Of a stretch of 64,000 nt of DNA, positions 20,327 through 49,748 are shown piece by piece. Numbering within the stretch: the stretch's first letter is position 1; the number at the start of each line of letters is the position of its first letter. Origin of the DNA: Chiloscyllium plagiosum (taxonomy: Eukaryota); assembly GCF_004010195.1 (NCBI RefSeq), contig NC_057753.1:7004273-7068272 (forward strand), written 5' to 3'. The position numbers and the translations under genes are program-made. Below the pieces are notes generated by a model, which was not told the DNA's origin, did not search any database, and saw only the letters and a list, made by a program, of their open reading frames with translations.

Positions 20327-20396
20327 ATGGGGAAACCATGGATTTGGCTCATGAAAGAAATATGTTATCCGATTCTAGCAGTTATTTGCATTCCAG
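20327..20396 (+). CDS. GPCR gene 1, exon 1 (MGKPWIWLMKEICYPILAVICIP)
   Basis: Runs from ATG to a CCAG|GTAAAT donor; 70 nt, phase 1. It supplies the N-terminus and the first half of TM1 missing from the 22990 ORF, and is conserved in all three units. Confidence 0.9.
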
Positions 20397-20669
20397 GTAA
20401 ATCTTCCTAATCTGTTTGTTTTTGAGTCAGTGTTTTTCTTTCATGCTAATGCCCTATTGTGGAAAGATCTATTTGCCATTGCCAAAACAGTGTTACAACA
20501 ACAAAATCAACAATGATTTGTGGGCATTTTCCAATCTTCCTACTTTCTCAAAATATTACTGGTGTAATAATAATGTAATATAACTGACGTCTGCAATTTT
20601 GTTTTTCCTTAATCCTTACACTGTCAAACTATAGTGGATAGAATACCGACAGTACTGCCATACGAAAGG

Positions 20670-20975
20670 GTCAGTAGCTCGTGGTACGAACTGCTGCCTC
20701 ACAGCACAACGGACCTGAGCACGATTCCATCTCGTTCCACAGTCTGGATATAGCTGGTTCTGGTTGCCTCCCATAGTGGAAAACTGTGCGCGTTACGTGG
20801 ATTGGCAGTGATAAATTGCCCATTGGGTGCAGGATGTTTAAATTAGGTGCATAAGCCTTCGATAATCCCTGGGAAACCTGATGAGACTCATGGGTCTTGA
20901 TGGGCTGCTCTTTGGAGATGAGTGTGCAGTTGTTGGACTGAATGGCCTGTATTCACCTGTAATGATGCTATGAAT
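20670..20975 (+). mobile_element. Degenerate HE1/V-SINE-like SINE in the GPCR intron (paralogs ~35820-36150 and ~47510-47810)
   Basis: ctgctgcctcacagc head, gtggattggc..tg.taaattgcccat core and gttggactgaatggcctgt tail. Confidence 0.6.
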
Positions 20976-21989
20976 TACATGGCTTGTGTTCAAATGTTGG
21001 CAGTAAGTATCTTCACATGCATTTGAATCATGCATTGATACATTGATATAACTCTGAGGTGTGGTGATGCAATAGTGATATATTTGCTGAATTATTAATG
21101 CAGAGACTCAGATGATGTTCTGGACTGTTGCGTATGAATTTCGACACAGTCAGCCTTGCGTTATGAATTTCTGAACAATATAGAAATAATGCAATGCTGG
21201 CACACACATATATAAGCCTACAGGGTGAATTTGCATTCGCAGAATTGTATCTGTAAATACATTGTACTCTGTTCAAAAAGTACGTAACGTGTAGACAATC
21301 ATTTTTAAAAAATAATCCATGGAACATTTTATGAATTCCTACTTTGGAATAGTGCAATTCTGACACAAGGTTTGAATACTTATGGACTCTAACCTCACAC
21401 TGCAAATGTATTGCCCGAACTGAGATGTCATCTTTTTTACGAACACCTTACGTTAACTCGGGAATGTGACTTGTAAAAAGTTCTGAGGTTTACATTATAA
21501 TGAATCAAAAACTGCAAACCTTTCTCAAATATGAAAGACTTAACACCACTCTAGGTTTGTTCAGTATGACTCATCAGTGTATGAGATTTTGATCTTTTGT
21601 GATAAATTCTACGTCCAATGATCCTACTCCATGGTGTACATGATAAAGGAGCAGGGTTTCGAAGGCTTGTACTTTCAAATAAACCTGCTGTAACAAAGCT
21701 GATGTCGTTTAATTTAAGACAAAACTCATCCACCACAGTCGAACACTGATACCTCCACATCATAATCCAATGACGACCAGATATCCATCGCTGATTATTG
21801 AGAAAACCTTACTAAGGTAACTAACGTTCGTTATGAAAGTTAAATACCATCCTTACCTCTTCAGGCCGATGCATAACATTACATTTGTCTCGTAATTTAG
21901 CTTTGGAGAATGAGACATGTGCAATGAGTGCCAGCTGAGCGCATGACACCGTCATCCAATGAATGATTTCTTTTTTTAAAATACTGACC

Positions 21990-22990
21990 AATTACTAGCG
22001 GCGTACCTCAAGGGTCGGTGTTGGATCCACTGCTGTTCCTCATTTTTGTGAATGACGTGGATGAGGGCTTAGAAGGATGGTTTAGTAAATTTGCGGATGA
22101 CACTAAGATCGGTGGAGTTGTGGACAGTGACGAAGAATGTAGTAGGTTACAGAGAGACATAGATAAGATGTCGAGCTGGGCTGCGAGGTGGCAAATGGAG
22201 TTTAATGTGGACAATGGTGAGGTGATACACTTTGGACGGAGTAATCGGAATGCAAACTACTCGGCTAATGGTAAGATTCTTGGGAGTGCAGATGAGCAGG
22301 GAGATCTCGGTGTCAAGGTATACAGATCCTTGAACGTTGCCACCTAGATTGACAGGGTTGTTAAGAAGGCATACTGTGTTTTGGTCTTTATAAATCGAGG
22401 GATTGAGTTCCAGAACCAGGAGGCTAAGGTGCAGCTGTACAAAGCTCTGGCACGGCCACACTTTGGGTATTGTGTACAATTCTGGTCACCACATTATAAA
22501 AAGGATTTGGAAGCTTTGAAAAGGTGCAGAGGACATTTAATAGGATGGTGCCTGGTGTGGAAGGAATGTCTTTTGAGGAAAGGCTGAGGGCCTTGAGACT
22601 GTTCTCGTTATAGAGAAGAAGGTTGAAAGGTGACTTAATAGAGACATACAAGATATTCAGAGGGTTAGATAGGGTGGACAGGGAGAGCCTTTTTCCAAGT
22701 ATGGGAACGGCAAACACAAGGGGACAAAACTTTAAAGTGAGATTAGACAGATGTCAGAGGTAGTGTCTTTACTCATAGAGTAATACGGGCAACGAATGCT
22801 TTACCTGCAACGGTAGTAGATTCGCCAAGTTTAAGTGCATTTAAGTTGTCATTGGACAGGCATATGGATCGACATGGAATAGTGTAGGTGGGAAGGGCTT
22901 CAGATTAGTATGACAGGGCAGCGCAACATCGAGGGCCAAAGGGCCTGTACTGCACTTTAATGTAATATGTTCTATGTTCTATATGTTCTA
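21990..22990 (+). mobile_element. 5'-truncated CR1 LINE inserted at the 3' end of the gene-1 intron
   Basis: Translates as ITSGVPQGSVLDPLLF, SKFADDTK and [15 protein letters not shown]; (TATGTTC)n tail; candidate TSD TGACC at 21985-21989 and 22991-22995. Absent from paralogs 2 and 3. Confidence 0.92.
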
Positions 22991-23014
22991 TGACCTTCTC
23001 AATCTCTCTTACAG

Positions 23015-23913
23015 CGAATTCGATGACAATTTTGATTCTCTTGAGAGGCGACTGTGGTCTTTCCAAGTGTATCTCGGTTTACATGGTGGCTATGGCAACT
23101 TCAGATCTATTGGCCATTATCATTAATTCTGTAGTGTATCGCATTTTGAACTATTATTTTCCATTTTCCTTCTTGTCTCACACACCTGTATGCTTATTCA
23201 TTGCATACATGAGTGCCATATCTCTCGATATAACTGTTTGGTTCACCGTATCCTTCACATTTGACAGATTTGTGATGATTTGTTGTCAGGAGTTTAAAAG
23301 AAAGTATTGCACAAAAATAACCGCAATCACATTATTAATAATCGTCTCAGCCCTGATCCTATTGAAGAATATTCCGGTGTTGTTTGCATATGAGCCTGAG
23401 AAGATCGTTCAAAACGTCCAGTGGGGCTGTAGAACAAGAGCAACTTTCTTTGCTTCACCTCTTGCGATGACGTTTGTCTGGTTTTACAGTGCCTCGGTTG
23501 CGTGGATTCCATTTCCACTAATATTCGTGTTCAATTCTTTAACCGTCTACCGCATTTTCGTGGCAAATAGAAGGCGTAATGGACTCCAGGGACACAGAAA
23601 TGTGAATCATAGCAATTCAGTGGTCGAGAACCGGAGGAAATCTATCATTTTATTATTCACTGTGTCAATCAGCTTCATCGTGCTTTGGTTCACATATTCC
23701 CTGTGTTTGGCCATCACTCGAGTGTCACACCCTAATTATTACCGAGGCGACTTCGCAAACCCTGAATATATCGCAACGGAAACAGGAAATATCCTGAAGC
23801 TGCTGAGTTGTTTTGTTAATCCATGTATTTATGCAGCAACACAGAACAAATTCAGGGAATCGCTGCTGAATATGATGAAACCTTTATGGAAACAAACCCT
23901 CAGCATATGCTAA
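23015..23913 (+). CDS. GPCR gene 1, exon 2: class A 7TM orphan receptor, GPR139-like (322 aa after splicing)
   Basis: The ctctcttacag| acceptor joins in frame (G|CG = Ala). Motifs: TM1 Asn (PAN), TM2 AMATSDLL, TM3 Cys and FTFDRF (DRY variant), ECL2 WGC, TM5 WIPF..IFVFN, ENRRKSIILLF, TM6 SF..LW, TM7 NPCIY and helix 8 KFRE. No internal stops. Confidence 0.93.
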
Positions 23914-24510
23914 AATGTATAAACAGAATCCTTATTTTCAAAGTACAACAACGTAGCTGAGTTTTCATCTCATTTATTTCTAAAACAATAGGTTTTTCTT
24001 CGACTCTGTTAATGTACGTTTTAAAAAAGTTGTTAGCTTACATTACTTAGTTTTGCTGTGAGACAATTTATTCGGAATATTTTTCTGTTCTTTATCCTTT
24101 TTTTGTGATGTTACAAATAGCATATTCATTCAAAGGGGACAAATTTCAAATTGTGAATCAATATTTTTAAAAAGTATAATGAAGTCGGAAGTGATGTCTC
24201 ACCTATGAATTAATATCAAAAGAATCTGAGCACATATCAGGAGCCAATGTGGCACTTCTGCTTTTAAGTTTGGACTGGAAACAATCCGAGATTGGTGTCT
24301 TGTTTGACAATTCAACTAAGGTGTGTGTGTTTGTGTGTGTGTTTGCGTGAGAGATTTGTTTTTTTCTGTGTTTGTGTTAATGTTTGTGTTTGTTTGAAAA
24401 GATTCACTACGCTGAACCATGACGTTTTTTTGGCAATGTGAGTGGATAGAATAGATCTGCAGTTTGGAGACAACTTCCTAGTTCTTATTCTGTCCAGAGA
24501 GTCAAAAATT

Positions 24511-24724
24511 TGACTTTCACAGAGCTGAGAGTGTGTTGCTGCAAAAAGCATTGAAAGTCAGGCAGCATCCGAGGAGTGTGAACACTGCTGATGTGCTCTG
24601 GCCCGAAACGTCGGTTTTTATGCTCCTGGGATGCCGTCTGACTTGCTGTGCTATTCCAGCAACACATTCTCAAGTCTGATCTTAGCATCTGCAGACCTCA
24701 CTGCCTCCCTGACTTTCACAGAGC
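24511..24724. mobile_element. Short palindromic Penelope-derived element downstream of gene 1 (paralogs ~38890-39020, ~39465-39670 and ~50193-50407)
   Basis: Inverted arms gagagtgtgttgctg...ggcagcatcc / ggatgc..tctgac...cagcaacacattctc, flanked by the direct repeat TGACTTTCACAGAGC (24511-24525 and 24710-24724). Confidence 0.7.
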
Positions 24725-25052
24725 GTCATTTAGCAAAACCACTCTGACGAGCCAACACTCAGATGAGACCGAAATTCTTGTAGACTGCAAGTAGTCAGTC
24801 AGAAACACAGGAAAAAAAATTGAGAAAAGAGCTGGAGAATATGGTGAAATATCTATAGACACAAATCTGAAGACTTGATAAAAATGCGGACGAACATACA
24901 TGTTTTATCAAAAGACTCCTTGATAATTAATCTTAGTTTCACCTCTTTTACTGTCATCCTTACTTACTGAACACCTAAAATAAAAGATTGCACGTTGTGT
25001 TTTGCGTGCACATTCTTTTGAATTCCTATTGGATATTTGCTGTGGTTGACTT

Positions 25053-25348
25053 TAGAACAAAGTAAATTGAACAAAGTGATTTTGCAGCCAAGGAACAGAC
25101 CCTTCGGACCGCCAAGCCTGAGACGTTCCAAATGTATTGTCATAACTTGTCGGTCACTTCCTAAGCATTTGTATTCCTCTGCTCCCCACCTATTGAATCA
25201 TCTGTCCAGATGCATATTAAATGAATCTCCCGTGCCTGCCTCTACCACCTCTGCTGTTCCAAACGCCCACCACCCTCTTGGTGATGTACTTGCTGCGTGT
25301 ATCCCCCTTAAACTTTCCACCTCTCAGCTTGAAAGCGAGACCTCTCGT
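25053..25348 (-). mobile_element. CR1 LINE 3' end running into gap 2
   Basis: Minus-strand translation TRGLAFKLRGGKFKGD.R.KY.TKRVVGVWN. Not present at the homologous site in units 2 and 3. Confidence 0.8.
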
Positions 25349-25848
25349 NNNNNNNNNNNNNNNNNNNNNNNNNNNNNNNNNNNNNNNNNNNNNNNNNNNN
25401 NNNNNNNNNNNNNNNNNNNNNNNNNNNNNNNNNNNNNNNNNNNNNNNNNNNNNNNNNNNNNNNNNNNNNNNNNNNNNNNNNNNNNNNNNNNNNNNNNNNN
25501 NNNNNNNNNNNNNNNNNNNNNNNNNNNNNNNNNNNNNNNNNNNNNNNNNNNNNNNNNNNNNNNNNNNNNNNNNNNNNNNNNNNNNNNNNNNNNNNNNNNN
25601 NNNNNNNNNNNNNNNNNNNNNNNNNNNNNNNNNNNNNNNNNNNNNNNNNNNNNNNNNNNNNNNNNNNNNNNNNNNNNNNNNNNNNNNNNNNNNNNNNNNN
25701 NNNNNNNNNNNNNNNNNNNNNNNNNNNNNNNNNNNNNNNNNNNNNNNNNNNNNNNNNNNNNNNNNNNNNNNNNNNNNNNNNNNNNNNNNNNNNNNNNNNN
25801 NNNNNNNNNNNNNNNNNNNNNNNNNNNNNNNNNNNNNNNNNNNNNNNN
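25349..25848. other. Assembly gap (exactly 500 N, probably a placeholder length)
   Basis: Run of N. Confidence 1.
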
Positions 25849-27440
25849 GCATTGGAAGCATACACACAATGGTTCACAAACGTAACGAAGGAAACAGGTC
25901 AGACTTACCTTGAGTTTGAAAAAATTAAATATGGTCATTTTGCTCGGTGAGTACTTGCTTTAAAAATTGATAAGACCACTTAGTCTCTCCGAAAGATTAT
26001 TCGGCTGAATGATTTTAAAATCTCACTTTTAAAGCTGGTAAGAATTCACGTGAAGCAACAGAAAGTTCAGGAAATAGGAAGGGCAGCAGAATTAGCAGCT
26101 GAATACACGTTGCTTCAGAAAACAAGATTGCAAACAAAATTTCGACCTGTGAGGGATAGAAGTTAGGAGAAGGGAGATCCTAAAATACTTAACCAAGTGT
26201 GCAGAGCACTGGTAAGATTTTTAAAAAGATGCCCAATAGGAGCGAAAGGATAGGTAAGACATCAGGTGTTTCCACTGTGGTAAAGTGGGACATGTACATT
26301 CGCAGTGCTGGACAGTCAAGAAAGCTGCTGTGAAAAAAAAATGTGGTAAGGGAAGCTAAGCCAGAGACATTCGTGAAGGTATTAAAATAACCACAAGAAG
26401 AGTTGAGGAGCTGCAGGAGAGAGTACAGCCTCGGCAGGGGCTCAGTATCGAGTTAGTACCTTATCTCAAAAAAGATTTCGCCTTTGTGGCTCATGTTTAT
26501 TCCGAAAGAACGGGGAAGAAATACAAAACAAACCTAATGTTCAGAGATGCAGGTTCTCATCAGTCATTGATCGTGGAAGATGAGCAAATACGCAGTCTTA
26601 CTGATCTGTAAGCCATGAGTGTGTAATCTGTGGGATAGATGGAGGGAAACTTAGCGTTCCCCTATGTAAGATCTGGTTGGAATATCAACTTAAGTCTGAG
26701 GAAGTTACAATGGGAATGTCAGTTTCAGGATTTCAGTTTGTTCTTGGGAATGATTTGGTAAGATCCAATGTGGGAGTGACACCCCATGTTGTGGAAAGGC
26801 CCAAGAATGTCCAAGAAACTGAGGAGTTAAAATAGAAATAACCTGGTATTTTCCCAGACTGTGCAGTAATTAGATCTGACTATCATAGGAAACACCACGA
26901 AGCGAAAAGTAGAGAAAGATGAAGGAGTTGAAGTTAAGTTAGCAGACACCCTGATTGACGTAATTGTGCAGGAAAAACCTGAACAGGCCGAGGATCAGAC
27001 GGGAGTGTTTCGTCCTGGAAAGCTAAGAGACGTGCAATAGCAAGACAACATGATGACAAGTTTTATATGTGTAGGCGTACTACAAAAAGAGGCAAAACAT
27101 TTTCTGGGAGGTTGTAATCTAGAATACAGAATTCCAAGACAGAAAATGAGACCACGGCGAGTTAGTGCAGAAGGGGAATGGGCCGAAGTGCACCAGAGCA
27201 CTGGGAGCAGACAAACTGAAGGTGTTACATAAAGCACACGAACTCGGGGTAGGAAATGCTCAGCTCGGGGTAGGAAATGCTCAGGCGACGGTACAATATT
27301 TTTTCATTGCCCTGAACTGCACAAGGATGTGGTAACCGTTTGCTGAACGTGTCATACATACCAAATGGTAAGGCACAGACGAGAAACAAACCAGCACCTT
27401 TGTTGTCAATTCATTAATTTGAATAATTTTTCACGCGTGT
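25849..27440 (+). mobile_element. Gmr1-like Ty3/Gypsy LTR-retrotransposon relic (gag with CCHC knuckle, protease, integrase N-terminus)
   Basis: AAELAAEY, the zinc knuckle CFHCGKVGHVHSQC at 26267-26308, protease RDAGSHQSLI, QFVLGNDL, then integrase zinc-finger remnants. Paralogous to 58583-60180. Confidence 0.8.
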
Positions 27441-27571
27441 TACCACTCTTCCCCCCACAGATTCGAAACATTCTGCTGAGTCCCAACAGAGATTTCTCTT
27501 TTTGATTCAATATTATTTACAACCCGTTCCTTTGCATGACCCTAGTTTTATCTCTTTCCCTATCTATGGAG

Positions 27572-27678
27572 GAGAAAGTGAGGGCTGCGGATGCTGGAGA
27601 TCAGAGCTGAAAATGTGTTGCTGGAAAAGCGCAGCAGGTCAGGCAGCATCCAAGGAACAGGACATTCGACGTTTTGGG
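27572..27678. mobile_element. Short Penelope-derived insertion with a 14-bp TSD
   Basis: gagaaagtgagggctgcggatgctggagatcagagc...cgacgttttggg, flanked by CCCTATCTATGGAG at 27558-27571 and 27679-27692. Confidence 0.75.
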
Positions 27679-29730
27679 CCCTATCTATGGAGCCCAATCT
27701 TCGGCCATCATAGCTGTTCTTCTCAACTGGATCAGGAAACTAAGGTTTTCTTAGTCAAATCTGCTGTTTGCTACATTTTAACAGATGTTTCTACGAAAAC
27801 ATCAACGTTTCAAAACATTGATTTAATATTTTGAAATATTTTGTGGATTTTGTGCGTGGAAGGGCCAAAACCGATGCAACGGAGAACGTCTATATTTTTA
27901 GGTTTGTGCGAATATTTTTCTGTAAATAATCAAAAGCAGAAAGCGACAGCAAAGAAAGCACAGCATCTGTTCAGACAGAAACAGAACTCAAGGTCATTAA
28001 ATTTGTAATGCCAACATTCCATCTTTCTCTCTCCACGACCTCGCCACACCTAATGAGTTTCTCCAGCTTATCTTTTATTTTAGTTGTTCTAGATCTCCAG
28101 CATTCATAGTTTTGATTTATTTTATGTCAGTGTCTCAGGACTTATATTCAGTCCCGAGACAGACTTCAAGAGAAAGACAGCAATTAATCTGCGAATATCT
28201 AATGCAGACATAGATTTATCTCAGATAATTTCTGTCATTCTTTCCATCTTCATAATAGCTCGTCAGTTAACTGTAGAACCAACACCGATAATCTCTAAGA
28301 AACTGTGTTAAATCTTGTAGGCCCGACTTAGACTTCGTATTAAGCTTCGATTTAGACGTTTCCGAATTAGATTGGAAACTTGTTAGTAATTGAGCGAAAT
28401 TACCGTCACTGGCCAGGCCGTTCGATCTAGGATACTGATCGTATGTGGGAGGGCTTGCACAACGTGAGAGTAGCATAAAGCAGGTTACTTCCACTGAGTT
28501 CTATGGGACGTGGAATGTCATGAGATTTATGGAAAATTGTCTGTGATGTTTCGTGAGGTGCACCTCAACAAATGGATTATCTCACTGCAGAGATATTCTC
28601 GTTGATATGGACGAGGCTGGGCATCCCCAAAATATTTTGAAAAGGCAGCCTGACCCGAACTGTTCCTCATTTTAAACGCTGATGTGTTTTAGATATTCCA
28701 GGTGTGAGGCAGCTGGCCAAACCACTCGGCTTTAAGCAAAACATAACGTATTTAAATACTACAATTGAAACAAAAACGAAATAATACATAATTTAGAATA
28801 ACGAGCTCAACGATATGAAAAAACAAGTAATTCAATATAACAACTTAAATATGGAGTGGTTAGAATTCCCACAACGCCCATAAACACACCCCTTGGCAAA
28901 ACGGAAATTCAAATTTAGGTTCTTACAGGAAGGAGAGATGTCAGAGAGAAACGTCAATCCGTGATCTTCTGCTGAAGCATGGAATCCTTTGCACATTTTC
29001 AGCTTCTGCGCCTGCTAACAACAGCTTTTATGATAAAACTAAGCCAAACCGGACAAACTCCGAACAGGGAGAACCAATTACTTCAATGAGGTTGCTCAAC
29101 CGGGCTCTTCCCTAAACGTATACACACATCTGCCATTCCGAAATCCCTAGAAAAAGAAACCCAAGGGTAAAATACCCTTACTAATGTGACAGCATTGTCC
29201 TTCCGTTTAGCAATTATGTTAGGCAGTAATGAGTGCAAACTTACATGGAATTAAAGTTGTAAAATGGTGCATTAGCAACGCAACTTAGCTAATACATATT
29301 CAGCATCCTAACTTACCTAATATGTTGAGCCAGATAACTGAGAAGAACTGTCAATAATGCAACATAGAGAAGGTACATGGTGACCTCAGCTCGCTCCTTG
29401 CCCTGAAAATCCACTCAGATGAACACTAGTTCCCAAGATCTCATGACACAGTCCATGCACGCCTTTTCCAGAAAGCTGCATGTCCCCACATCTAAACGCA
29501 CTTTAAGTGGCAGAAATCTGTGAGATCAAACTCAAAGCTCAGCGAAAGCTTAAAAAAAACTTGAACTGTCAAACGTTCAGTCTTTATTTAAGAAGACCCA
29601 CATGCAGTGTTTATGGCTAAAACAAATAAGAGAGGTAAAAACCAAAGGATCCCGGCACTCTCCAAGTCGATTGCACCTTCACAAAGAAAAAGAGTAATAT
29701 CATAAATTTTAAAATATGCTGAGAAATTGG

Positions 29731-31092
29731 AGATTACATGAAATGTACGTCATCTGTCATGCTGAACATTTGCCTTACTAGTTTTAGCAAACATTAATCG
29801 TTTGCATCATTCCATGACTCTATTTCTGTTGCATGGACATTTTGTTTCGATAAACTCTGCAGTTCAAATTATACAAGGAGCCATTAAGAAGATTACTGAC
29901 GTTTTATCAAGCTTGTACAATTTGTTTACATTCAGACTCTTCGTGAAAGCTCTTTCTGATCTTTTGCCACAGGCCTGTTTTAGTTGCTGATCCTTAATTC
30001 GAGAATTTGTCGTTTTTCCCATCATGCAATGTTAAACGTTCCCCACAATGCCACACCTAGGCCTGAGCATTTATAATATGGCAAACTGCAAGCACAGACC
30101 GGGCACACTTCTGATCTACTTACAACACACTTGTGCAATTCTAGGTTCCACGTGAAATGCTCCAGCAAGGAACACATTGTGCGCTGGAAGAAATGCATTT
30201 AGCTCATGAATTGGACTAAGATTACATCCCTGAGCCCTTTGTTTATTTTCAAACACAATGCTAGTCCACCGTTGCCTGGGCTGTTTGCCTCCTCAAACAA
30301 AGACATTTGTCTCCTAAGACTTCAGTCTTGCCTTGCTGGTTCGCAAGAACCCAGAGCAGGATTGTTGTCAAGTTTTCACGGAGCTTCATTCTAGTCAAGA
30401 GAGAGATCCTTAGATTACATGAAATGTACGTCATCTGTCATGCTGAACATTTGCCTTACTAGTTTTAGCAAACATTAATCGTTTGCATCATTCCATGACT
30501 CTATTTCTGTTGCATGGACATTTTGTTTCGATAAACTCTGCAGTTCAAATTATACAAGGAGCCATTAAGAAGATTACTGACGTTTTATCAAGCTTGTACA
30601 ATTTGTTTACATTCAGACTCGTCGTGAAAGCTCTTTCTGATCTTTTGCCACAGACCTGTTTTAGTTGCTGATCCTTAATTCGAGAATTTGTCGTTTTTCC
30701 CATCATGCAATGTTAAACGTTCCCCACAATGCCACACCTAGGCCTGAGCATTTATAATATGGCAAACTGCAAGTTCAGACCGGGCACACTTGTGATCTAC
30801 TTACAACACACTTGTGCAATTCTAGGTTCCACGTGAAATGCTCCAGCAAGGAACGCATTGTGCGCTGGAAGAAATGCATTTAGCTCATGACTTGGACTAA
30901 GATTACATCCCTGAGCCCTTTGTTTATGTTCAAACACAATGCTAGTCCACCGTTGCCTGGGCTGTTTGCCTCCTCAAACAAAAACATTTGTCTCCTAAGA
31001 CTTCAGTCTTGCCTTGCTGCTTCGCAAGAACCCAGAGCAGGATTGTTGTCAAGTTTTCACGGAGCTTCATTCTAGTCAAGAGAGAGATCCTT
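29731..31092 (+). repeat. 681-bp near-perfect tandem duplication (29731-30411 and 30412-31092)
   Basis: Junction gagagatcctt|agattacatg. The ORF pairs 29802/30483 and 30206/30887 are each offset by exactly 681. Confidence 0.97.
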
Positions 31093-35391: not shown

Positions 35392-35457
35392 GAAAGCATC
35401 CCGGTCATGCACCAGCCACAGATATTTAGCACTGGCAGAAGTAATTGATTGTTGAAA

Positions 35458-35527
35458 ATGGTTAAACCATGGATTTTGCTCATGAAAGAAGTATGTTATC
35501 CAATTCTCGCAGTCATTTGCATTCCAG
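35458..35527 (+). CDS. GPCR gene 2, exon 1 (MVKPWILLMKEVCYPILAVICIP)
   Basis: ATG at 35458 to a CCAG|GTAAAT donor; 70 nt, phase 1. Confidence 0.9.
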
Positions 35528-37420: not shown

Positions 37421-38319
37421 CGAATTCGATGACGATTTTGATTCTCGTGCGAGGCGACTGTGGTCTTTCCAAGTGTATCTCGGTTTACATGGTAGCTATG
37501 GCAACTTCCGATCTATTGGCCAGTATGATTAATATTGTCGTGTATCGCATTTTGAACTATTACTTTCCATTTTCCTTCTTGTCTCACACACCTATATGCT
37601 TATTCATTGTATACATGATTACCATCACTCTCGATCTATGTGTTTGGTTCACTGTTTCATTCACATTTGACAGATTTGTGATGATCTGCTGTCAGGAGTT
37701 TAAAAGAAAGTATTGCACAAAAAAAACCGCGATCACATTATTAATAATCGTCTCAGCCCTGATCCTATTGAAGAATATTCCGTTGTTGTTTGCATATGAG
37801 CCTGAGAAGATCGTTCAAAATATCCAGTGGGGCTGTAGAACAAGAGCAACTTTCTTAGCTTCACCTCTTGCGATGACGTTTGTCTGGTTTTACAGCGCCT
37901 CTGTTGCTTGGATCCCATTTCTGCTAATATTCGTGTTCAATTCTTTAACCGTCTACCTCATTTTCGTGGCAAATAGAAGGCGTATTGGACTCCAGGGGCA
38001 CAGAAATGAGAATCATAGCAATTCAATGGGCGAGAATCGGAGGAAATCTATCATTTTATTATTCTGTGTGTCAGTCAGTTTTCTAATGCTTTGGCTGACA
38101 TATTCCCTATGTTTGGTCATTACCAGAGTGTCACACCCTAATTATTACCGAGGTGACTTCTCAAAGCCTGAATATATCGCAACGGAAACAGGAAATATCT
38201 TGAAGCTGCTGAGTTGTTTCCTTAATCCATGTATTTATGCAGCAACACAGAACAAATTCAGGCAAGCGCTGCTGAATATGATGAGACCTGTATGGAAACA
38301 AATCCTCAGAATATGTTAA
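37421..38319 (+). CDS. GPCR gene 2, exon 2: GPR139-like class A 7TM receptor (322 aa after splicing)
   Basis: In-frame ctctcttacag| acceptor; same SDLL, DRF, WGC and NPCIY motifs; no internal stops. Confidence 0.93.
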
Positions 38320-38487
38320 TACAAAACAGCGTGTGTATTTTGACAGCATAACATCGTAGCTGAGTTTTTATTTCATTTAATTCTAAAACAATAGATTTTT
38401 CTTAGATTATGGTTATGTACATGCAACAAAAACAAGTATTTCGCTTACATTAATTAGTTTTGATGTGGGACAAATTATTCTGCATTA

Positions 38488-39596
38488 TTTTCTCTAATTT
38501 ATAATTTATTTTTATGTTGTTACAGATAGTATATTTATTTAAAGGGAAAAACTTACAACTTTGTCAATCAATGTTAAAACAAAAAGTACAATGAAGGTAG
38601 GAGTGATGTCTCAGATGTGAATTAACATCAAAGGAATCTGAACATATACCAGGTTTGCATTTAAATTTAGACTGGTAACAATACAAGATTACTGTCTTGC
38701 TTTACAATTCAGCTAATGTGTGTGTGTGTGTGTGTGTGTGTGACGTGTTTGTGTTAATTTTTTTAATTGTTTAAAATTATTAACTCCGCTGAAACGTGAA
38801 GTGTTTTTGGCTATGTTAGTAGACAGAATAAATCTGCAGTTAGAACATAACATCTCAGCTCTTATTCTCCACAGAGAGTCAAAAACCTGACTGTCGCAGA
38901 GCTGAGAGTGTGTTTCTGGAAAAAACACTGCAGGTCATTCAGCATGCGAGGAGGAGGACAATCGACGTTTCGGGCCGGAGCCCTTCATCAAGGAATCCTG
39001 GGATGCTGCCTGACCTGCTTTTCTGTAATTTATAATTTATATATATGTTGTTACAGATAGTATATTTATTTAAAGGGAAAAACTTACAACTTTGTAAATC
39101 AATGTTAAAACAAAAAGTTCAATGAAGGTAGGAGTGATGTCTCAGATGTGAATTAACATCAAAGGAATCTGAACACATACCAGGTTTGCTTTTAAATTTA
39201 GACTGGCAACAATACAAGATTACTGCCTTGCTTGACAATTCAGCTTGTGTGTGCGTGTGTGTGTGTGTGCGTGTGTGCGTGTGTTTGTGTGTTTGTGTGT
39301 GTGTGTGTGAGAGAGAGAGACGTGTTTGTGTTTATTTTTTTATTTGTTTAAAATTATTAACTCCGCTGAAACGTGAAGTGTTTTTGGCTATGTCAGTAGA
39401 CAGAATAGATCTGCAGTTAGGAGATAACATCTCAGCTCTTATTCTCCACAGAGAGTCAAAAACCTGACTTTCGCAGAGCTGAGAGTGTGTTGCTGGAAAT
39501 AACACTGCAGGTCATTCATCATGCGAGGAGGAGTTCAATTGACGTTTCGGGCCGGAGCCCTTCATCAAGGAATTCTGGGATGCTGCCTGACCTGCT
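38488..39596 (+). repeat. ~530-580-bp tandem duplication downstream of gene 2, including (GT)n microsatellites
   Basis: Copies begin ttttct.taatttataattt at ~38488 and ~39019 and run to ggatgctgcctgacctgct. Confidence 0.92.
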
Positions 39597-40249
39597 GTGC
39601 TTTTCCAACAACACACCCACAACTCTGATCTCAGCATCTGTAGACCTTACTGTCTCGCAGATTTTCACACAGCGTCATTCACCAAAACCACTCCTAGGAG
39701 CCAACACTCAGATGAGAACGAAATTGCTGTAGACTGCAGCTATCAATCAGAAACACAGAAAAAAATTGAGAAAAGAGTTGAAGAATGGGTGTCGTCCTGA
39801 TAGAGACAAATCTGAATACTTGATAAAAATGCGAACGAAAATACATCTTTGATTAAAAGACTCCGTGATGCTGAACCTTAGCTTCACCTCTTTTACTGTA
39901 ATCCTTACTTATTGAAAACGAAAAAGGAAAGAATCAACGTTGAGTTTTGCGTGCACATTCCTTCGTTTTACTATTGGTAATTTGCTATGGGTAACTTTAT
40001 ATTATTAAGCAATGGGCGTCAGGAGTAAAATCTGACTATTAATTAATGGTAATCATTACAGATACTAAAAACGATACTAGTATTTTCTCGCTATCTTGGT
40101 GATTGTATAAAGCGGTACTGAATAAAGCGTAGTTTTTTGACCAGTTGGAACAGGCAATCTTTCTTAATTAGTTGATAACACAAGCAGTCATAACACCTTA
40201 TCACTCAGTGGTAAGTTCATTCATGAATCGTACATTTACAGAAAAATTG

Positions 40250-41729
40250 AAAATAAGAAAACGTTTAGAAGAAGAATTGTGAACAAGCAAACAATACTCG
40301 CCAAACGTGTGTGGACACCTCTGTGCCAAGGTCAGGGATGTCTCGGATCGAGCTGACAGGGTTCGAAAGGGGAAAGTTGAGCAGTCAGAAGCCTTGGTAT
40401 ACATCGGTGCGAACGACATATGTAGAAAGGGATGAGGACGTGAAAAATGAATATAGGCAATTAGTTTCGCAGTTAAATGCATGATAAGCAGAATAGTGTT
40501 GTCAGGATTGCTACCTATACCACGGGGTTGTGTGTGCATTTGAACACGTGGATGCAGAGCTGGTGTGGTGGGGGAAGGCTTCAGATATGTGCATCATCGC
40601 AATAAATTCTGAGGAAGGTGGGACCTGAACAAGAAGTACGTGTTGTACCTGAACTGGAGGGGCACCAGTTTGCAATAGGTGTTCAGGAAGGTTAAAACTA
40701 GTTTGGCAGGGGGATGGGAACTGGAGCTACGTATGATAGGTTGGGGGTAGCTGGTGAACAGGCAGAGACAACGAGAACAGAGTCTGTGAGGGAGGATAAA
40801 CACTTAACAGTTCAACGTTACAGTCAGTGTGTTTGATTGTAGTGTGTCTATTTTAACACCAAATAGTTAGGAATATTGTTGATGAACTTATAGCATAGGG
40901 GTAGGAATTGTTCTTGGATGTTGCGCAGTTTACACGTTTCACAATTAAGAGGGAGGGAAATAAAATAGGTACTGGGGTGGAATTGCTAATCAGAGGTAGT
41001 ATCACAGATGCAGAAAAGGAGTTCGTCGACGAGAGTTTGCTTTTTGAGTCAGTATGGGTTAAAGTCAGAAACAGGGAAGAGAAACTCAATTTGTAGGGAG
41101 GTTTCCACAGATCTCCAATACCAACGGAGACCTGGAGGAGCAGATTAGATGGCAGATTTTGGAAAGGTGCCAAACTAACAGGGTTGTTGTAATGGGTGAT
41201 ATCAACTTCCTTAATATTGGTTGGCACATCCTTATGGAAAATAAATTGGATGGATCAAATTCTGTCAGGTGTGTCTGTGAAGGATTCCTCACTCAGTGTG
41301 GAGATGGGCTGCAGATTACAGGTTTGAAGGCAGGTTTTGACAGTGTTGGGGAACAGAGTAATTTGGGGATTCATGTGCACGGATCCCTCAAAGCTGGCAC
41401 TCAAGTTCATAGGGTTCATAAAAAGGCGAATGTTTTGTTGAATTTCATTAGCAGGGGGGCTGAGTTTGAGAGCCACGAAGTTATGCTGCAGCTCTATGCA
41501 ACCCTAATTATGTAACACCTGGAATATTGTGTTCAGTTCTGGTCGCCTCCTGATAGGAAAGATATGCAAGCTTTAGAGAAGGTGCAGAGGAAATTTACTA
41601 AAATGCTGCCTGGATGGAGAGCATGTCTGATGAAGATAGGTAAGGGAGCGACTGTTTTTCTCATTGGAGTGAAGAAGATGAGAAATGGCTAGATGAATGT
41701 GCACGAGTTGATGCGAGGCGTAAAAAGAT
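40250..41729 (+). mobile_element. Old, internally deleted CR1 LINE relic (part of the duplicated unit)
   Basis: ORF1 SGNH-like remnant (ARVRDVSDR, HIG.ND), endonuclease remnant RVVVMGDINF and RT C-terminal remnants. Paralog at 51230-53470. Confidence 0.8.
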
Positions 41730-42018
41730 TTCCTAGAGGCATGGTACTCATTCACTGATTTAATCAACAAGCACATCGACCTGGACCCAATATACCGGCC
41801 ACTGCAGTGGACAGCTGGAACTGACAACCGGAAGCGGCAGATGCAATTCACTATAAATGCCGGAGGAAGCATCACAGAAGCGTTTCACAGGAGCCTCCCA
41901 AGCACTGACGATGTCACCGAGACAGGGGACGAAACGTCTGCAACACAAATTCCCAGATCGGCGAACAGAACCACAACAACGAGCACCCGAGCTACAAATC
42001 TTCTCACAAACTTTGAAC
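41730..42018 (+). mobile_element. Penelope-like element 3' fragment (GIY-YIG C-terminus + terminal repeat)
   Basis: Translates as FLEAWYSFTDLINKHIDLDPIYRPLQ, matching the tail of the GIY-YIG relic at 57545-57810. It is followed by a TATAAAT and a hammerhead-like motif. Confidence 0.8.
41902..41941 (+). ncRNA. Putative minimal type I hammerhead ribozyme
   Basis: GCA-CTGACGA-T-GTCACC-gagaca-GGGGAC-GAAA-CG-TC|TGC: CUGANGA box, stem II with one mismatch, GAAA, GUC cleavage triplet and a 3-bp stem I. Confidence 0.65.
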
Positions 42019-45000
42019 ACCTCTGCCTTTGCGAAATCTCTTAAATAAGAAACCCAAGGGTAAAATAGCCTTATTAAAATGACAGCATCGTCCTTCCGAT
42101 TAAAGTTGTGAAATGGTGCATTAGCAACGCAACTTAGCTAATACATATTCAGCTTCCTATCTTACCTAATATGCTGAGCAAGGTAGCTGAGATGAACTGT
42201 CAATAATGCAACATAGAGAAGGTACATTGTGACCGCAGCTCGCTCCTTGCCCTGCAAATCCACTCAGATGAACACCAGTTCCGAATATCTCTTGACACGG
42301 TCCATGCACGACTTTTGCAGAAAGCTCTATGTCTCCAGATCTAATTGCACTTAAATTAGCAGGAATCTGTGCGATCAACCACAACACTCAGAGAAAGATT
42401 TTTTAAAAACTAACTTGAACTGAAAAAGTTCAGTCTTTATTTTAAACAAATCCGCATGCAGTGTTTCTGACTCAAAAAAAACTTAAGAGACGGAGAAACT
42501 CCAAGTCGATTGCACCTTTACAAAGAATAAGAGTAACATCATACATTTGCACGTATGCTGAGAAATTGCAGATTACATGAAGTGTACGTCATCTGTAGTG
42601 CTAAACATTTGCCTTATTAGTTTTACCAAACATTAAGAATTTGCATCATTCTATAACTCTATTTCTGTTGTATGGACATTTTGTTTAAGCTAAACTCTGC
42701 AGTTCAAATTGTACAAGGAGTCATTAAGAAGATTGCTGATGTTTTGTCAAGCGTATACTATTTGTTTACATTCAGACTGGTCCTGAAAGCCGGTTCTGAA
42801 CTTTTGCCTGTTTAATTTGATGATCCTTCATTCGACAATTAGTCTTCATTCCCATCATGCAGTGTTAAACATTCCCTACAATGTCGAACATAGGCCTGAG
42901 CATTCATAATAAGGCAAACTGCAAGAACAGACAGGACACATTTTGATACACTTGCAACATTCTTGTGCAATTCTACGTTGCGCATGAAATGCTCCAGCAA
43001 GGACCACCTTGTGCTTTGGATGAAATGCATTTAGCTCATAACTTTGACCAAGGTTGCATCCCTGAGTCCTTTGTTCATTGCCATACAAAATACCAGTCCA
43101 CCATTGCGTAGTGTGTTTGCACCCTCAAACAAAGACTCGTAAGACTTCAGTCTTGGCTTGCTGCTTAACATGAACCCAGAGTAGGATTGTTGTCAAGATT
43201 TCACCAGTCTTCGTTGTATTCAAGAAAGTGATCCTTTGCACAGGGGCCCAACGGCACATTAACTCTGCGACAGACTCTGGTAGTAGTCAAAAGGATTGGG
43301 CACAGTCAGTCAGGTACTCAAGTTGTTCCATGTCAGGATGTACACCAATCCAAATAGTTTGGAGTCAACTGTTGTATGTGTTGGAGTGGAGGCCAACATT
43401 TGGTGCCAATGTCTTCTTATCCTTGAACCGAGGGGCTACGTCATCTATTGCCTAAGGCAGTCATGACTCTAAAAACACTATAAACTACCTCTTGGATATA
43501 TTCAGTGACGTGGACGCCATTGCCTGCTGTAGGAGAGAACTCCACATGTTCACTGTTCTCTAATGGAAGAAATGTTCCCTCATCTCAGTCGTTCCCCATA
43601 TCCTGAGACTTCGACACCTGATGAAAGAACCAGGGGAAGGATGCTCCATGCATCGGTCAGTCCAACAATGTTCAAATGTATACGTTAAAATCAGATTATC
43701 TCTCATGCATCTAAACTGTATTGAATAAATGACCACTCAAAACAGTCTCTCCTCGAGGATAATTCTGCTATCTCTCCTGAAAGCCTTGTGAACCTGCACT
43801 GCACGTCCACTCTGGCAAGTGCACTCTCAGTGAGTGAGGACAAAACGACTTGTGATTCTCTGAGCGTGGTCTAAATGAACCTTTGTAAAACTGCAGTTTC
43901 GTTTACAGATTACAGTCGGGCCTAAAACAAGGAACGCTCATTCGAAACTTTCCCTTTAAAAGTTTATGGCAACAGCAACTGGAGGTATAAACAGGTGAAC
44001 TCCTGAGACTTCACGTTTTGTTTAACAGAAGTGGAATAGAATGAAAGCTTTCCACTCTTGACCTGTATGTCAAACACAGACCCATCAATGCCATGTAATT
44101 ACTGAAATTACCTTGATTGTTTTATCTCTAAAAAAACAGTGTGATAGATTCATATAGCATGGAAACAGATGCTACAATCCAATTTGTCCAGTCGCAATGT
44201 TCTGAACTAAATTTGACTTGCTGCACAAATGCTGTCTGAAATGCTTTGTGATTTCAGCGTTTGCTACTTTCTGATACTTCCCTCAACACTCGAATACTTT
44301 ACTTCAATCAACGATTAATGGCTCCAAACCACGAAAATGAAACAGGTGATCATATCGTTCTGTTCTCTAATGTGAGAGAGATGACTGGTGGTGGTTTTAC
44401 CCTGAGATTCAGAGCACCTCAGAGATGGAGAGAGTTTAGGAAGGAGAGTCATTCATGCTGACTTCATGTCTTATGCTAATCTGCTCTGCTGCTCTCAATG
44501 TGCATTGCAAACAAAGCATCGAACCAACTAAAATAATCGACACTATCCCAGACGTTGGTATGTTAATGCACGTATAAACATGAGAGTTCATTATATGGCT
44601 GAAACCTACATTAAAACAAATAAATTTATATTGATTAATTTAGGCAAACATAATGACGTTCGACAAAAGCTATTGAAAGGTGCTTCTGGCCAACAGGAAC
44701 ATTTTATGAGCAGAATATTTCTTTTCTCTGGAGCAAAGGCCACAAATCCTGCTTCTGCCCAGATACCACAGTTGTAGATATCCACTCGGTGGTGTTGCTT
44801 TAATCTGGAACTACCAACAAAAAATATTCAGTTTGTGCGTGCATCTGCTTCTTTAAAGTGATCACAAGATCACAATATTTCGCAAAAGACCGTCCTCTTT
44901 GTTTAAAATAGTGCCAGATGAAAATGATTCGCGATTCACGAGATAGAGGTCGATTCCTGAAGGAAATAGACAACAGCCAGTACTTTCAAGGTGACTCAGC

Positions 45001-47041
45001 CGCACAAGATTCGCTTCAAATTAAGTTCGTTGTGGGGTATCTATCTTGAATCAGTACTCACGCAGTTTTGTTCTTGAATGAGAATAATTCTCTGGCCCGT
45101 TATTGTTTCCTCTCTCCTTTCTCATCAGAAGACACCCATCACTCCTGAAACTGTTCCACCTATGTTGTATTCCTCTTTTGCCCAGTGGCCTGTGGAGGGC
45201 ACAGTGCACAGGAGAATGTGGTACAATATCCCTGAGATATTCCGACTTCACTCCCATGCCCTCCAATCTCATTGTCCAGGACATCACTCCATCTGCTCAA
45301 CAGGATTGTGCACAGTTTTCCCTAGGTTCTTATCAATCGAAGTATTCCTAACCAATGTTTTATGTTTTATGCACATATTTTGCATCCTTCAACTCTTCCT
45401 GCATAGCTTTGCGCAGACGTGAATATAGGGATAATATGAAGCTGTAATCCCAAAATGACATCGCAGCAACGTACTACCTCAAAGTATGGAAAAACATTAA
45501 ACTCACAAGATTAACTGAAAATGCAGTCGAGTTTTGGAAAAATGGCGTTCAACTTTAGGCAAATGTTCATTGACAACGCCCAAAGAAATCTGACAATTTC
45601 TGCTTTTGTTCAGATTCTGTTGTAATTAGATAAGCTGATGGAAAACGGCATACGGAAGGATTGAATTGATAATCAAGTTAAGAAAAAACTTGCACAAGAT
45701 TATCTGGACTGCATTTCGTTTCTAAGTCTCGATCAAATCACTTCAGGCATTCAGCATTCTCCTCATGAATCTGATTCTCATTGCAGCCATAATCTCAACG
45801 TTATGCAACACTTCTGGTTTGATACAACCCTTGTCTGCCTTGACATACCAAGTGTACTTCCAAATACGTCTTAACTGATAATAGTGTGTCTATCTTTTCT
45901 GCAGATAGGTTTCGTGAGATTCACGTTCCAATATCCTTTGAGTGACTCTTTTCCCTCACATTTCGTGTAACTTCTGCTGTGATTTGCTTTCTGTCCATCA
46001 TCCCCGTTCTTTAGCATATCCCTTCACCAAAGGAAACATTTCCTTCCTGTCTTCGCTCGCGATGTCTCTCATTTTTTGATACTTCTTTACGCTTTATACA
46101 TCCCTCCGAATCTTCCCTGCTCCAAGGACAAAAAAAAGCCCGTCTCCCATTGTAGACCATACATACAACTCCAGAAACTAGAAAATAGTGTGGTTAATCT
46201 TTTCTGAACCCTTGCAGTTAGAATTAGACCGTTCCAAAAGCTTCCAGAACTCTAAAGGTGGTCTTACCTTTTTTTGCAACATGGCAGGATACATTGATTT
46301 TTACTCTTCCACACAAACAGTTCCCAACATCTGTAACCAACTATGCTGAAGAGTGCTATAATCTCACCTTATTGTTCCCAAACTGTACTGGAATCAAGGG
46401 ATAGGCGGAAGGGCAGCCCAATGAATGTGGGATCAGCCATGATCCTATTAAATGAAAGAGCAGACTCGAGGGAACGAACGGCCTATTCCTGTTCTTATTA
46501 CATATCGTCGTATGGAACAAGGCCGATTTTCAGGATTGACAGCAGAAAATTGGGGGAGTAAAACAAAATTGGACGAATACGTGTTTGATGGAATAATAAA
46601 CCTCTTTTGTTCTGTATTGCTGTAATATTTATTCAATTACCCCATGTAGTTACAGAAACGGATGTCAGAGGTATTGTTCATGACATGCCAAGGAGGTTTC
46701 AAACGATATTTAATGCAATGTCACACAAAATGCTCTTGGGAGAAGTGAAGTCCTTGGAATTGAAAGGACAGTGAGATGGGTAGTTTCAGTTAGAACACTG
46801 TTACAGCTGACTTTAAAGTTTGTCGAATGATTATTGGCACATGACTGAAACTGGAGGGAACGAAATCATTGGAAAACTCAACTAAAGCATTGGATGTCAG
46901 ATAACTGACAGTCTGTAGGTCAGAAAAATAAAACATTTTATTGAACTCACAGTTTGATCAGGGAGTCGACAATTTAACAGAAAACATAGTTATCTCTAAA
47001 AAATAGACGTTTGTCTAATTAATTCTAACTAATGTGAGTGA

Positions 47042-47087
47042 TGACGTCACATTAATGACTCTCTGGAGACCTGATGCGTTTATAAAT
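47042..47087 (+). promoter_or_regulatory. Putative core promoter of GPCR gene 3: perfect CRE palindrome TGACGTCA (47042-47049) + TATAAAT (47081-47087)
   Basis: Direct motif match. TATA is 73 nt upstream of the ATG. Confidence 0.55.
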
Positions 47088-47153
47088 GTAAGCACCTTGG
47101 TCATGTACCAGCCACAGACATTCAGCACCGACAGAAGTAATTGGTTCTTGAAT

Positions 47154-47223
47154 ATGGGGACACCATGGATTTTTCTCATGAAAGAAATATGTTATCCGAT
47201 TCTAGCAGTTATTTGTATTCCAG
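47154..47223 (+). CDS. GPCR gene 3, exon 1 (MGTPWIFLMKEICYPILAVICIP)
   Basis: ATG at 47154 to a CCAG|GTAAAT donor; 70 nt, phase 1. Confidence 0.9.
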
Positions 47224-48828
47224 GTAAATCATTCTCGTCTGTTTGTTTTTGAGTCAGTGTTTTTTCTATCATTGCTAATGCCCTATTGTGAAAAGAGCCA
47301 TTTGCCAATGGCAATTTTTTTTTAACACAGTGTCACCACAACAAAATTAATAATGGTTTCTGGACACTTTCCACTCTTCCTACTTTCTCAAAATGTTAGT
47401 GGTGTAATAATAACGTAAAATAACTGACGTCTGCGATTTTATTTTCCTTAATTCTTACATCATCATACTGTAGTGGATAGAATACCGGCAGAACTGGTAT
47501 ATGAAAGGCTTGGCAGCTAAGTGGTTAGAACTGCTGCCTCACAGTAGAAGGAACCTGAGCACGATTCCATCTTCGGGCGTTAGTCAGTATATAGCTGGCC
47601 CTGGTTGCCTTCCACAATTGAAAACTATGCATGTTAGGTGGATTGGCAGTGGAAAGTTGCCCATAATGTGCAGGATGTGTAAGGTACCTGCATAAGCTTT
47701 CGGTAATGCAGGGGGAGCCTGATTAGAGTCATGGGTCTTGATGGGCTGCTCTTTGGAGTGTCAGTGTGCAATTATTGGACTGAATGGCTTGTATTCCCCT
47801 GTAATTATGCTATGAATTACTTGACTTGTGTTCAAATATTGGTAGTAAATATCATCACATGCATTTCAATCATGCGTTGGTACATTGACATAAAACTGAG
47901 GGGTGGTGATGCAGTAGTGATATATTCGCTGGACTATTAATTCAGAGACCCAGTTGATGTTCTGGACTGTTCCGTACAAATCCCGACACAGTCAGCATTG
48001 CATTTTGAATTTCAAAAAATATAAAATTAATGCAATGCTCTCACAGACACACATAGAAGTCCATTGGGTGAATTTGCATTTGCAGAATTATATTGGTAGG
48101 TGCATTCTATTCTGTTCTAAAAGTACGTAACCTGTAGTCAATAATTTTTAAAAATATAATCCATGGTACATTTTATGAATTCCTACATTGGAATCGAGCC
48201 ATTCTGACACAAGTTTGGAATACGTATGGACTCTAACCTCACACTACTATTGCATTGCCTGAGATGAGATGTCACTTTTTTTCGAACACCTCAAGTTAAC
48301 TCGCGAATGTGACTTGAAAAAAGTTCTGGGGAATACATTTTAATGAATCGAAAACTGCAAACCTTTCTTAAATATGAAAGACTTAACAACAGTCTAGGTT
48401 CGTTCAATATGACTCATCAGTGCATGACATTTTGATCATTTGTGTTAAATTCTATGTCCTGTGATCCTACTCCACAATGTCCATGATGAAGGAACATGGC
48501 TACGAAGGCTTGTACTTTCAAATAAACCTGTTCTAACAAAGCCCTTGTCATGTAACTTTTTTTAAAATTTCATCCGCCCCCGCACCATAATCCAGTGACA
48601 ACCAGATATCCGTCACTGATTGTTGAGAAAACCTTACTGAGGTAACTAACGTTCGTTATGAAAGTTAAATACCATCCTTACCTCATCAGGCCGATGCATA
48701 ACATTATACTTGTCTCGTAAGTTAGCTTTGGAGAACGAGACATGTGCAATGAGTGTCAGCTGAGCGAATGACATCGTCATCCAATGAATGATTTTTTTTA
48801 AAGTACTCATCTTCTCTGTCTCTCACAG

Positions 48829-49748
48829 CGAATTCGATGACGATTTTGATTCTCTTGCGAGGGAACTGTGGTCTTTCCAAGTGTATCTCGGTTTACATGG
48901 TGGCTATGGCGACTTCTGATCTACTGGCCATTATCATTATTGCTGTCGTGTATCGCATTTTGAACTATTATTTTCCATTGTCCTTCTTGTCTCACACACC
49001 TGTATGCTTATTCATTGTATACATGACTACCATCACTCTCGATCTATCTGTTTGGTTCACCGTATCATTCACATTTGACAGATTTGTGATGATCTGCTGC
49101 CAGGAGTTCAAAAGAAAGCATTGCACAAAAAGAACCGCTATCACATTATTAATAATCGTCTCAGCCCTGATCCTATTGAAGAATATTCCGGTGTTGTTTG
49201 CATATGAACCTGAGAAGATTATTCAAAACGTCCAGTGGGGCTGTAAAACAAGTGCAACTTTCTTAGCTTCACCTCTTGGGATGACGTTTGTCTGGTTTTA
49301 CAGCGCCTCTGTTGCTTGGATTCCATTTCTGCTAATATTCGTGTTTAATTCTTTAACCGTCTGCCGCATTTTCGTGGCAAATAGAACGCGTATTGGACTC
49401 CAGGGGCACAGAAATGGGAATCAAAGCAATTCAGTGGGCGAGAACCGGAGGAAATCTGTCATTTTATTATTCTCTGTGTCAATCAGCTTCATCGTGCTTT
49501 GGTTGACATATTCCCTATGTTTGGCCATCACCAGAGTGTCACACCCTAATTATTACCGAGGCGACTTCGCAAACCCTGAATATATCGCAACAGAAACAGG
49601 AAATATCCTGAAGCTGCTGAGTTGTTTTCTTAATCCATGTATTTATGCAGCAACACAGAACAAATTCAGGGAAGCACTGCTTAACGTAATGAAACTTATA
49701 TGGAAAAAACCCTCAGAATATGTTAAAAAGAATAAACAGAGTGTTTAG
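48829..49748 (+). CDS. GPCR gene 3, exon 2: GPR139-like class A 7TM receptor (329 aa after splicing, altered C-terminus)
   Basis: In-frame tctctcacag| acceptor; all 7TM motifs intact. A 1-nt deletion after helix 8 changes the tail. Confidence 0.92.

Follow-up and report, generated by a model that had tools for sequence, protein, structure and literature searches.

What receptors are being multiplied, and to what end, in a 64,000-nucleotide stretch of the Chiloscyllium plagiosum genome (contig NC_057753.1, positions 7,004,273 to 7,068,272; hereafter the window)? A preliminary description, made from the letters alone, had pointed to three intact genes for G-protein-coupled receptors (GPCRs), here called A, B and C, and had proposed a tandemly expanding, lineage-specific cluster of orphan GPR139-like receptors with a sensory role. 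We find that these genes are recent members of a large receptor family of cartilaginous fishes, and that this expanded family has lost a basic residue at position 6.51 and diversified its ligand pocket while the signalling core stayed fixed. Whether the family is an unrecognised chemosensory receptor repertoire, the reading we prefer, appears to us an evenly balanced question when judged from sequence.

Each gene comprises two exons on the forward strand. In gene A, a 70-nucleotide exon 1 (20327..20396) supplies the ATG, a short N-terminus and most of transmembrane helix 1 (TM1) ahead of a GT donor at 20397, and exon 2 (23015..23913) runs from the end of TM1 to the stop, giving a spliced protein of 322 residues; the 2618-nucleotide intron also holds a reverse-transcriptase fragment of a long interspersed element (LINE) at ~22027-22982. 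Gene B (35458..35527 and 37421..38319; intron 1893 nucleotides, protein 322 residues) and gene C (47154..47223 and 48829..49748; intron 1605 nucleotides, protein 329 residues) likewise start with a 70-nucleotide exon. In all three, a GT donor follows exon 1, the acceptor is a phase-1 AG and no internal stop is present. A TATA-like box, no more than chance would give, lies at -73 from the ATG of each (20233-20260 and its equivalents). The splice is independently supported, since full-length models of other sharks (P0003, P0005, P0008-P0016 of our protein collection, in which P0001 is the exon-2 product of gene C) open with a homologue of exon 1. Exon 2 of each gene matches Pfam 7tm_1 at 57-70 bits (cut-off 30.5). 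Splice sites, domain and shark models thus agree with the earlier account of three intact, co-oriented two-exon genes whose exon 1 the open reading frame (ORF) track misses. Its remark that the coding exons are free of internal indels holds with one exception: gene C has a 1-nucleotide deletion six codons upstream of the A/B stop, which turns the last six residues into 13 different ones.

The sequence features first read from the window were likewise recovered. N1.50, D2.50, D/E-R3.50, P5.50, W6.48 and NPxxY are all kept in A-C, Thr stands where P6.50 is expected so that TM6 lacks its proline, the DRY motif reads DRF, and the short N-terminus is sequon-free, with 24 residues ahead of Asn1.50. 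The AlphaFold model of gene A (predicted local distance difference test score 75) is a seven-helix bundle with a hairpin in extracellular loop 2 (ECL2). A fold search with this model returned class A structures at TM-scores of 0.61-0.79, with the ghrelin and neurotensin receptors on top, and is non-discriminating, GPR139 holding rank 8 among near-equal class A matches. By the 7tm_1 domain, the seven-helix model and the signalling motifs, A-C are class A (rhodopsin-like) GPCRs, and their intact ORFs, purifying selection and retained signalling motifs indicate functional, recently duplicated receptors.

Self-BLAST places the genes in three duplicated forward-strand blocks (~12534-25054, 25856-41724 and 42017-53181) that are 77-88% identical in their aligned pieces, with exon 1 of neighbouring genes spaced 15.1 and 11.7 kb apart. 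The coding sequences (CDS) are 92-93% identical and the introns 15-21% different with 12-16 gaps, and A, B and C are therefore paralogues, not haplotypes. Synonymous divergence (dS) is 0.16-0.19 and nonsynonymous divergence (dN) 0.05-0.06. Because intron divergence is close to dS, synonymous sites are near neutral, with no sign of recent conversion. Pairwise dN/dS is 0.30, 0.33 and 0.35 (Fisher p 5e-7 to 3e-5), which places A-C under purifying selection and away from the value of about 1 over the CDS that the preliminary description had named as contrary to its proposal. New copies would most likely be supplied by unequal crossing-over between these 12-16-kb repeat-rich blocks. Contigs of a public sequencing run (X1) span the intron and flanks of gene A with ~2-3% differences; their summed depth is higher over exon 2 (691-1655) than over unique flank (~50-130), a hint of additional close paralogues, but this depth is not a copy number and was not used.

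A protein search with the window receptors returned 538 proteins at E<=0.001. The best 120 of the 538 consist of gene C itself and 119 named shark proteins (49-71% identity, mostly labelled 'probable GPR139'), and the closest named relatives among the matches listed are Chiloscyllium plagiosum, Stegostoma and Rhincodon proteins at 69-71% identity. Distinct members, defined by less than 95% core identity, number 31 of 31 rows in the sawshark, 28 of 28 in the horn shark and 24 of 25 in the sevengill; drawn from one subfamily, these counts are lower bounds. At E<=1e-30 there are 90 representatives at 50% identity, and all 21 of the named ones come from a shark, ray, skate or chimaera, with Callorhinchus, rays and skates among them. 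The family therefore extends across the cartilaginous fishes and is not confined to the carpet-shark lineage. The triplication of A-C, which form their own clade, is recent and sits atop an older expansion that includes chimaeras. The term 'lineage-specific' consequently fits the copies in the window and not the family, while the proposed expansion of an orphan class A family by birth and death is upheld by the at least 24-31 members per species in three sharks and by a decayed copy nearby.

The ancestor of the family appears to be a gene distinct from GPR139. Against solved structures, the family profile finds GPR139 best (E 2.6e-17; next 7e-13), which makes it the nearest solved relative. 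Gene A alone, however, scores 27 bits against human GPR139 (E 3e-5), compared with 123 bits against a salamander protein (P0210) and 108 bits against a coelacanth protein (P0221). GPR139 and GPR142 (PDB 7vug, 9m42) are orphan class A receptors that respond to L-Trp and L-Phe; in the accessible text of Zhou et al. (PMC8807744), Arg6.51 binds the GPR139 agonist, tolerates only Lys, is docked to the L-Trp/L-Phe carboxyl, and is described as exclusive to GPR139 and GPR142 and required for activation. At the GPR139/142 pocket residues E3.32, F3.33, H5.43, W6.48, N7x38 and F7.50, A-C carry S/I/T, A/T/T, S, W, N and P, so that two of the six match under sequential numbering from motif anchors. The family has in common with GPR139 Asn5.58, Trp6.48 and an acid in outer TM7 (D268 in GPR139; 98% of near members have Glu), and A-C carry an Asn matching GPR139 N271. 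In contrast, A-C are without Arg6.51, Pro6.50, Glu3.32, Phe3.33, His5.43 and Phe7.50, the family has a Cys3.25 that GPR139 lacks in the profile alignment, and GPR139 is single-copy whereas the shark family is many-copy. The low score against human GPR139 and the absent Arg6.51 argue that the family members are not GPR139 orthologues.

We placed the family in an IQ-TREE tree of 45 rows, of which 27 were picked from the collected family members and three are invertebrate outgroups (two on long branches). A motif scan of the 392 collected proteins found no true GPR139/142 among them, hence none is in the tree. Support is 100/100 for A-C and for the carpet-shark clade, 90/81 for the family and 98/95 for the family joined to an amphibian/sturgeon gene (P0210, P0404-P0423); a FastTree tree of 98 rows has the same shape, with support of 0.86. 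Seeding a search with P0210 gave 25 matches, namely 20 amphibian rows, one sturgeon and four cartilaginous-fish family members; the 21 bony-vertebrate rows form one cluster per species, and no teleost or amniote match was seen in this word-limited search. The tree supports reading the family as the multi-copy equivalent of a single GPR139/GPR210-related gene, of which amphibians and sturgeon have one per species, and the cartilaginous fishes probably built it from a single gene such as those lineages have. Like the family, the amphibian/sturgeon protein has a short sequon-free N-terminus, DR-F/Y and a similar start of TM6; unlike it, with 28-33% identity to the shark proteins, it has a conserved pocket and keeps Lys6.51 and Pro6.50. 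As a single-copy gene in Xenopus and salamander, it offers a practical starting point for finding the ligand and tissue of the ancestral receptor.

A second set of relatives must be kept apart from the family. GPR210A and GPR210B are orphans of non-mammalian vertebrates, named beside GPR139/142 by Rinne et al. 2019 (PMC6504862), in whose accessible account of GPR210 no cartilaginous fish and no expansion is listed; among the literature searched, 'GPR210' was relevantly present only there. The group seeded by P0221 contains sharks, ray-finned fishes, coelacanth, amphibians, turtles and squamates and stands 70 bits from GPR139; it is a conserved low-copy orphan that is labelled 'probable GPR139' without being GPR139. 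P0221 is probably GPR210B, because two coelacanth accessions lie as far apart as the corresponding Ensembl ids of that paper if, as we assume, the letter O is skipped; on this accession spacing, P0221/P0273 would be GPR210B and P0266 an unnamed third subtype. The GPR210B-like group forms a separate 100/100 clade with shark members of its own (P0275, P0278 and P0282), and joining the family to it was rejected by the approximately unbiased test (p 0.024), for a grouping named after seeing the tree. It has F3.51 (99%) and T6.50 (89%) in common with A-C but keeps R6.51, and the coelacanth GPR210A/B relatives (P0221/P0273, P0266) have a short N-terminus like the shark family. Two members of the P0221 group, from zebra shark and tree frog, are named 'TMEM183A isoform', which hints at a conserved neighbour gene. 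Lamprey, anchovy and coelacanth proteins (P0258, P0263, P0266) form another clade (100/98) of GPR139-related orphans that keep Arg/Lys6.51. The label 'probable GPR139' covers at least three separate clades. The N-terminus is short and sequon-free in all 18 amphibian/sturgeon rows with a start, and short in 49 of 71 GPR210B-like rows. Since the short sequon-free N-terminus, DRF and the missing Pro6.50 are common to the amphibian sister or the GPR210B-like group, they carry no weight as chemoreceptor hallmarks here.

The pocket is where the family departs from its relatives. Position 6.51 is Lys in all 21 amphibian/sturgeon rows, Arg in 99% of 120 GPR210B-like rows, and Arg or Lys in five of five other relatives, including amphioxus, lamprey, anchovy and the second coelacanth protein, as opposed to only 3 of 166 rows of the expanded family; A-C have Tyr. 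For variability, we compared 31 pocket-facing positions, which we take to be a general class A set and which were fixed beforehand, with the remaining 132 positions in TM1-3 and TM5-7. Pocket entropy exceeds that of the other positions in 118 near members (1.46 versus 0.94; ratio 1.55, p 0.003) and in 48 distant members (2.40 versus 1.46; ratio 1.65, p 7e-6). The relation is reversed in the 21 amphibian/sturgeon rows (0.17 versus 0.50; ratio 0.33) and in the 120 GPR210B-like rows (0.68 versus 0.96; ratio 0.70, p 0.06). Across the family, W3.41, R3.50, N5.58, W6.48, N7.49 and Y7.53 are 94-100% fixed; Pro7.50 is a minority residue in near members (36%, with Thr at 61%). The earlier suggestion of varied ligands is in keeping with this family-wide contrast, and the pattern suggests one scaffold tuned to many ligands, as would be expected of a ligand-diversified sensor repertoire. 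The pocket of A-C is polar (Asp3.37, Tyr5.42, Trp6.48, Tyr6.51, Glu7.36, Asn7.39 and Lys7.42), and Lys7.42, which 66% of near members have, may stand in for the basic anchor that was lost. This polar pocket and the predicted ECL2 hairpin suggest small polar or peptide ligands.

Under the chemosensory reading, each receptor would be a monomeric G-protein-coupled detector, acting through Gq/11 or Gi by analogy with GPR139. Its ligands would be small polar compounds, molecules resembling amino acids, or short peptides, held between TM2, TM3, TM6 and TM7, with Glu7.36, Asp3.37 and Lys7.42 as candidate new anchors. In the least secure step, these ligands would come from outside the animal, and the receptors would form a repertoire of an epithelium such as nose, mouth and gill, skin or gut. 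As a tandem multigene family with births and deaths, the shark family evolves as chemosensory repertoires do: OR, TAAR, V1R/ORA, V2R/OlfC and T2R genes (PMC10869828) likewise have tandem arrays, pseudogenes, a compact CDS and a variable pocket on a fixed core. The family differs from them in having no sequence kinship beyond class A, Pfam giving 7tm_1 only. MRGPR and FPR arrays show the same evolutionary likeness to the shark family. According to the accessible text of PMC10869828, no other vertebrates have as small an olfactory repertoire as cartilaginous fishes (mean 43.8 genes), and that of PMC8455134 reports a paucity of GPCRs in them. One subfamily of the present receptors alone accounts for at least 24-31 different genes in each of three sharks. 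A stronger version, which we hold only tentatively, is that a further unnamed chemoreceptor family arose from the GPR139/GPR210 neuropeptide-receptor clade through loss of Arg/Lys6.51, equals or exceeds the known shark olfactory repertoire in size, is hidden under 'probable GPR139', and helps to explain keen smell with few known receptors. If the family is sensory, surveys restricted to six known receptor families missed a major one.

Several observations weigh against this reading. When only A-C are compared, the pocket shows no excess variability, 4 of its 31 positions differing as against 19 of the 132 other transmembrane positions (p=1), and the extracellular and intracellular halves do not differ (p 0.23). 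The only replacement excess among A-C lies at residues 57-98 (16 nonsynonymous and 3 synonymous changes, versus 38 and 45; p 0.004), a segment chosen post hoc. The family-wide entropies are not corrected for phylogeny, and the monophyly of the family, at the support given above, is unstarred. A 9-mer at -94 of A, B and C (Y3CAR4, which we take to be an O/E-like motif) was rejected as a promoter motif, being no more frequent than chance (0.57 expected per 300 bp). A search of sequencing runs listed no RNA run among those containing the sequence. Expression was sought in two single-cell runs with the species label of the best DNA run and no stated tissue. In X5 (~2% sampled), all 217 placed reads fell in intron or flank repeats and none on the exons of gene A, and in X6 (6% sampled) no read fell on the window; both are weak tests and not evidence of silence. 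In the accessible text on a catshark brain-plus-olfactory library, no GPCR is among the top 50 genes, again a weak test (PMC11979771). Finally, families of immune receptors evolve in this manner too.

This last point is what makes an immune or barrier role worth considering, although we think it rather unlikely. The receptors would sit on granulocytes, mast-like cells or barrier epithelia and detect microbial or damage peptides and metabolites, as mammalian MRGPRs and formyl-peptide receptors do, and the family would then be a shark analogue of MRGPRs. Tandem birth and death with a variable pocket would suit this as well, as would the predicted peptide-receptor-like fold with its ECL2 hairpin and its best matches to ghrelin and neurotensin receptors; cartilaginous fishes are moreover without MAS1-related receptors in the accessible text of PMC8455134, which would leave the niche open. 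The relatives examined nevertheless show no immune link in the accessible texts, GPR139 being neural and its invertebrate kin neuropeptide receptors (PMC12208981, PMC8514136). That kinship leads to a further explanation, in which the family keeps the neuropeptide role of the MIP/FMRFamide/GPR139 clade and binds the animal's own diversified peptides or metabolites, whether neuro-endocrine, reproductive or conspecific. The Cys3.25-ECL2 disulfide pair and hairpin are kept, and the protein-atlas neighbours are FMRFamide-receptor-like clusters. However, receptors for endogenous peptides usually remain few in number and keep their pocket conserved, which is what the sister and GPR210B-like groups do; the family does the opposite, which makes this account improbable.

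Equally to be weighed is largely non-adaptive copy-number drift, in which repeat-rich DNA duplicates a redundant gene and pocket variation reflects relaxed constraint. The blocks are laden with repeats, one decayed copy and one C-terminal frameshift lie in the window, A-C have no significant pocket enrichment, and the shallow X5/X6 reads contained no transcript. On the other hand, dN/dS is ~0.3 after 16-19% synonymous divergence, the signalling core is fixed among members only ~40% identical, and relaxation alone would not raise pocket variability above that of other transmembrane sites; we regard drift as a poor explanation of the family.

Relatives of A-C already stand in databases as automatic predictions. 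The present analysis adds a sister gene that occurs in single copy, a distinction between the family and GPR210B, the disappearance of the anchor at 6.51, and a pocket variability that runs the other way in the low-copy groups. We found no published description of a GPR139-like expansion in cartilaginous fishes, subscription papers and some supplements lying outside the search. The expansion is not mentioned in the accessible texts of PMC11979771, PMC10620051, PMC8455134, PMC13113109 and 10.1101/2025.02.19.638963, and the family is absent from the supplements of PMC13188829 (8 files) and PMC8455134 (12 of 24 files).

The decayed paralogue, which the preliminary description had missed, is an exon-2 remnant on the reverse strand at ~950-2050, with 47-52% identity to family members by tblastn (E to 5e-28); its reading frame is broken by frameshifts and stop codons, a short repeat has inserted near 1404-1590, and a pyrimidine-rich acceptor-like site is found at the equivalent position. 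The fourth block that had been announced does begin on the forward strand at 58585..63993 as a copy collinear with the 5' part of block B (25856-31248). It is, however, more diverged (20-32%, versus 16-17% among the A, B and C blocks in two segments common to them), and within the window tblastn finds no receptor exon in it; either a duplicate of greater age or a repeat could account for it. It is interrupted by a LINE fragment in inverted orientation (62131-63328) and starts in a decayed stretch resembling a long terminal repeat (LTR) retroelement. This stretch (58300-60200) and its counterpart at 25856-27441 have only a below-cut-off Pfam match to Integrase_H2C2 (E=0.024) and look like the gag, protease and integrase regions of an LTR retrotransposon of Gypsy/Gmr1 type. 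LINE fragments of the RVT_1 type, which we take to be CR1-like, lie at 6103-7119 and 62315-63328 on the reverse strand, with an inverted copy at 7554-8547 and open frames of ~338 residues. An open frame of 185 codons at 63400-63957 on the forward strand, in the diverged block copy, has no Pfam match and is probably due to chance. Pfam gave nothing above cut-off on 41 and 11 stop-free fragments from the flanks, and an Rfam search gave no matches. Assembly gaps (N) at 14742-15227 and 25349-25848 fall at block boundaries or inside block A, where further gene copies could have been collapsed. Block B also contains local tandem duplications at 29731-31092 (681 bp, 98.5%), 33729-34138 (203 bp, 97%) and 38488-39596 (~530 bp, 87%), the first two of which are either very recent or assembly artefacts.

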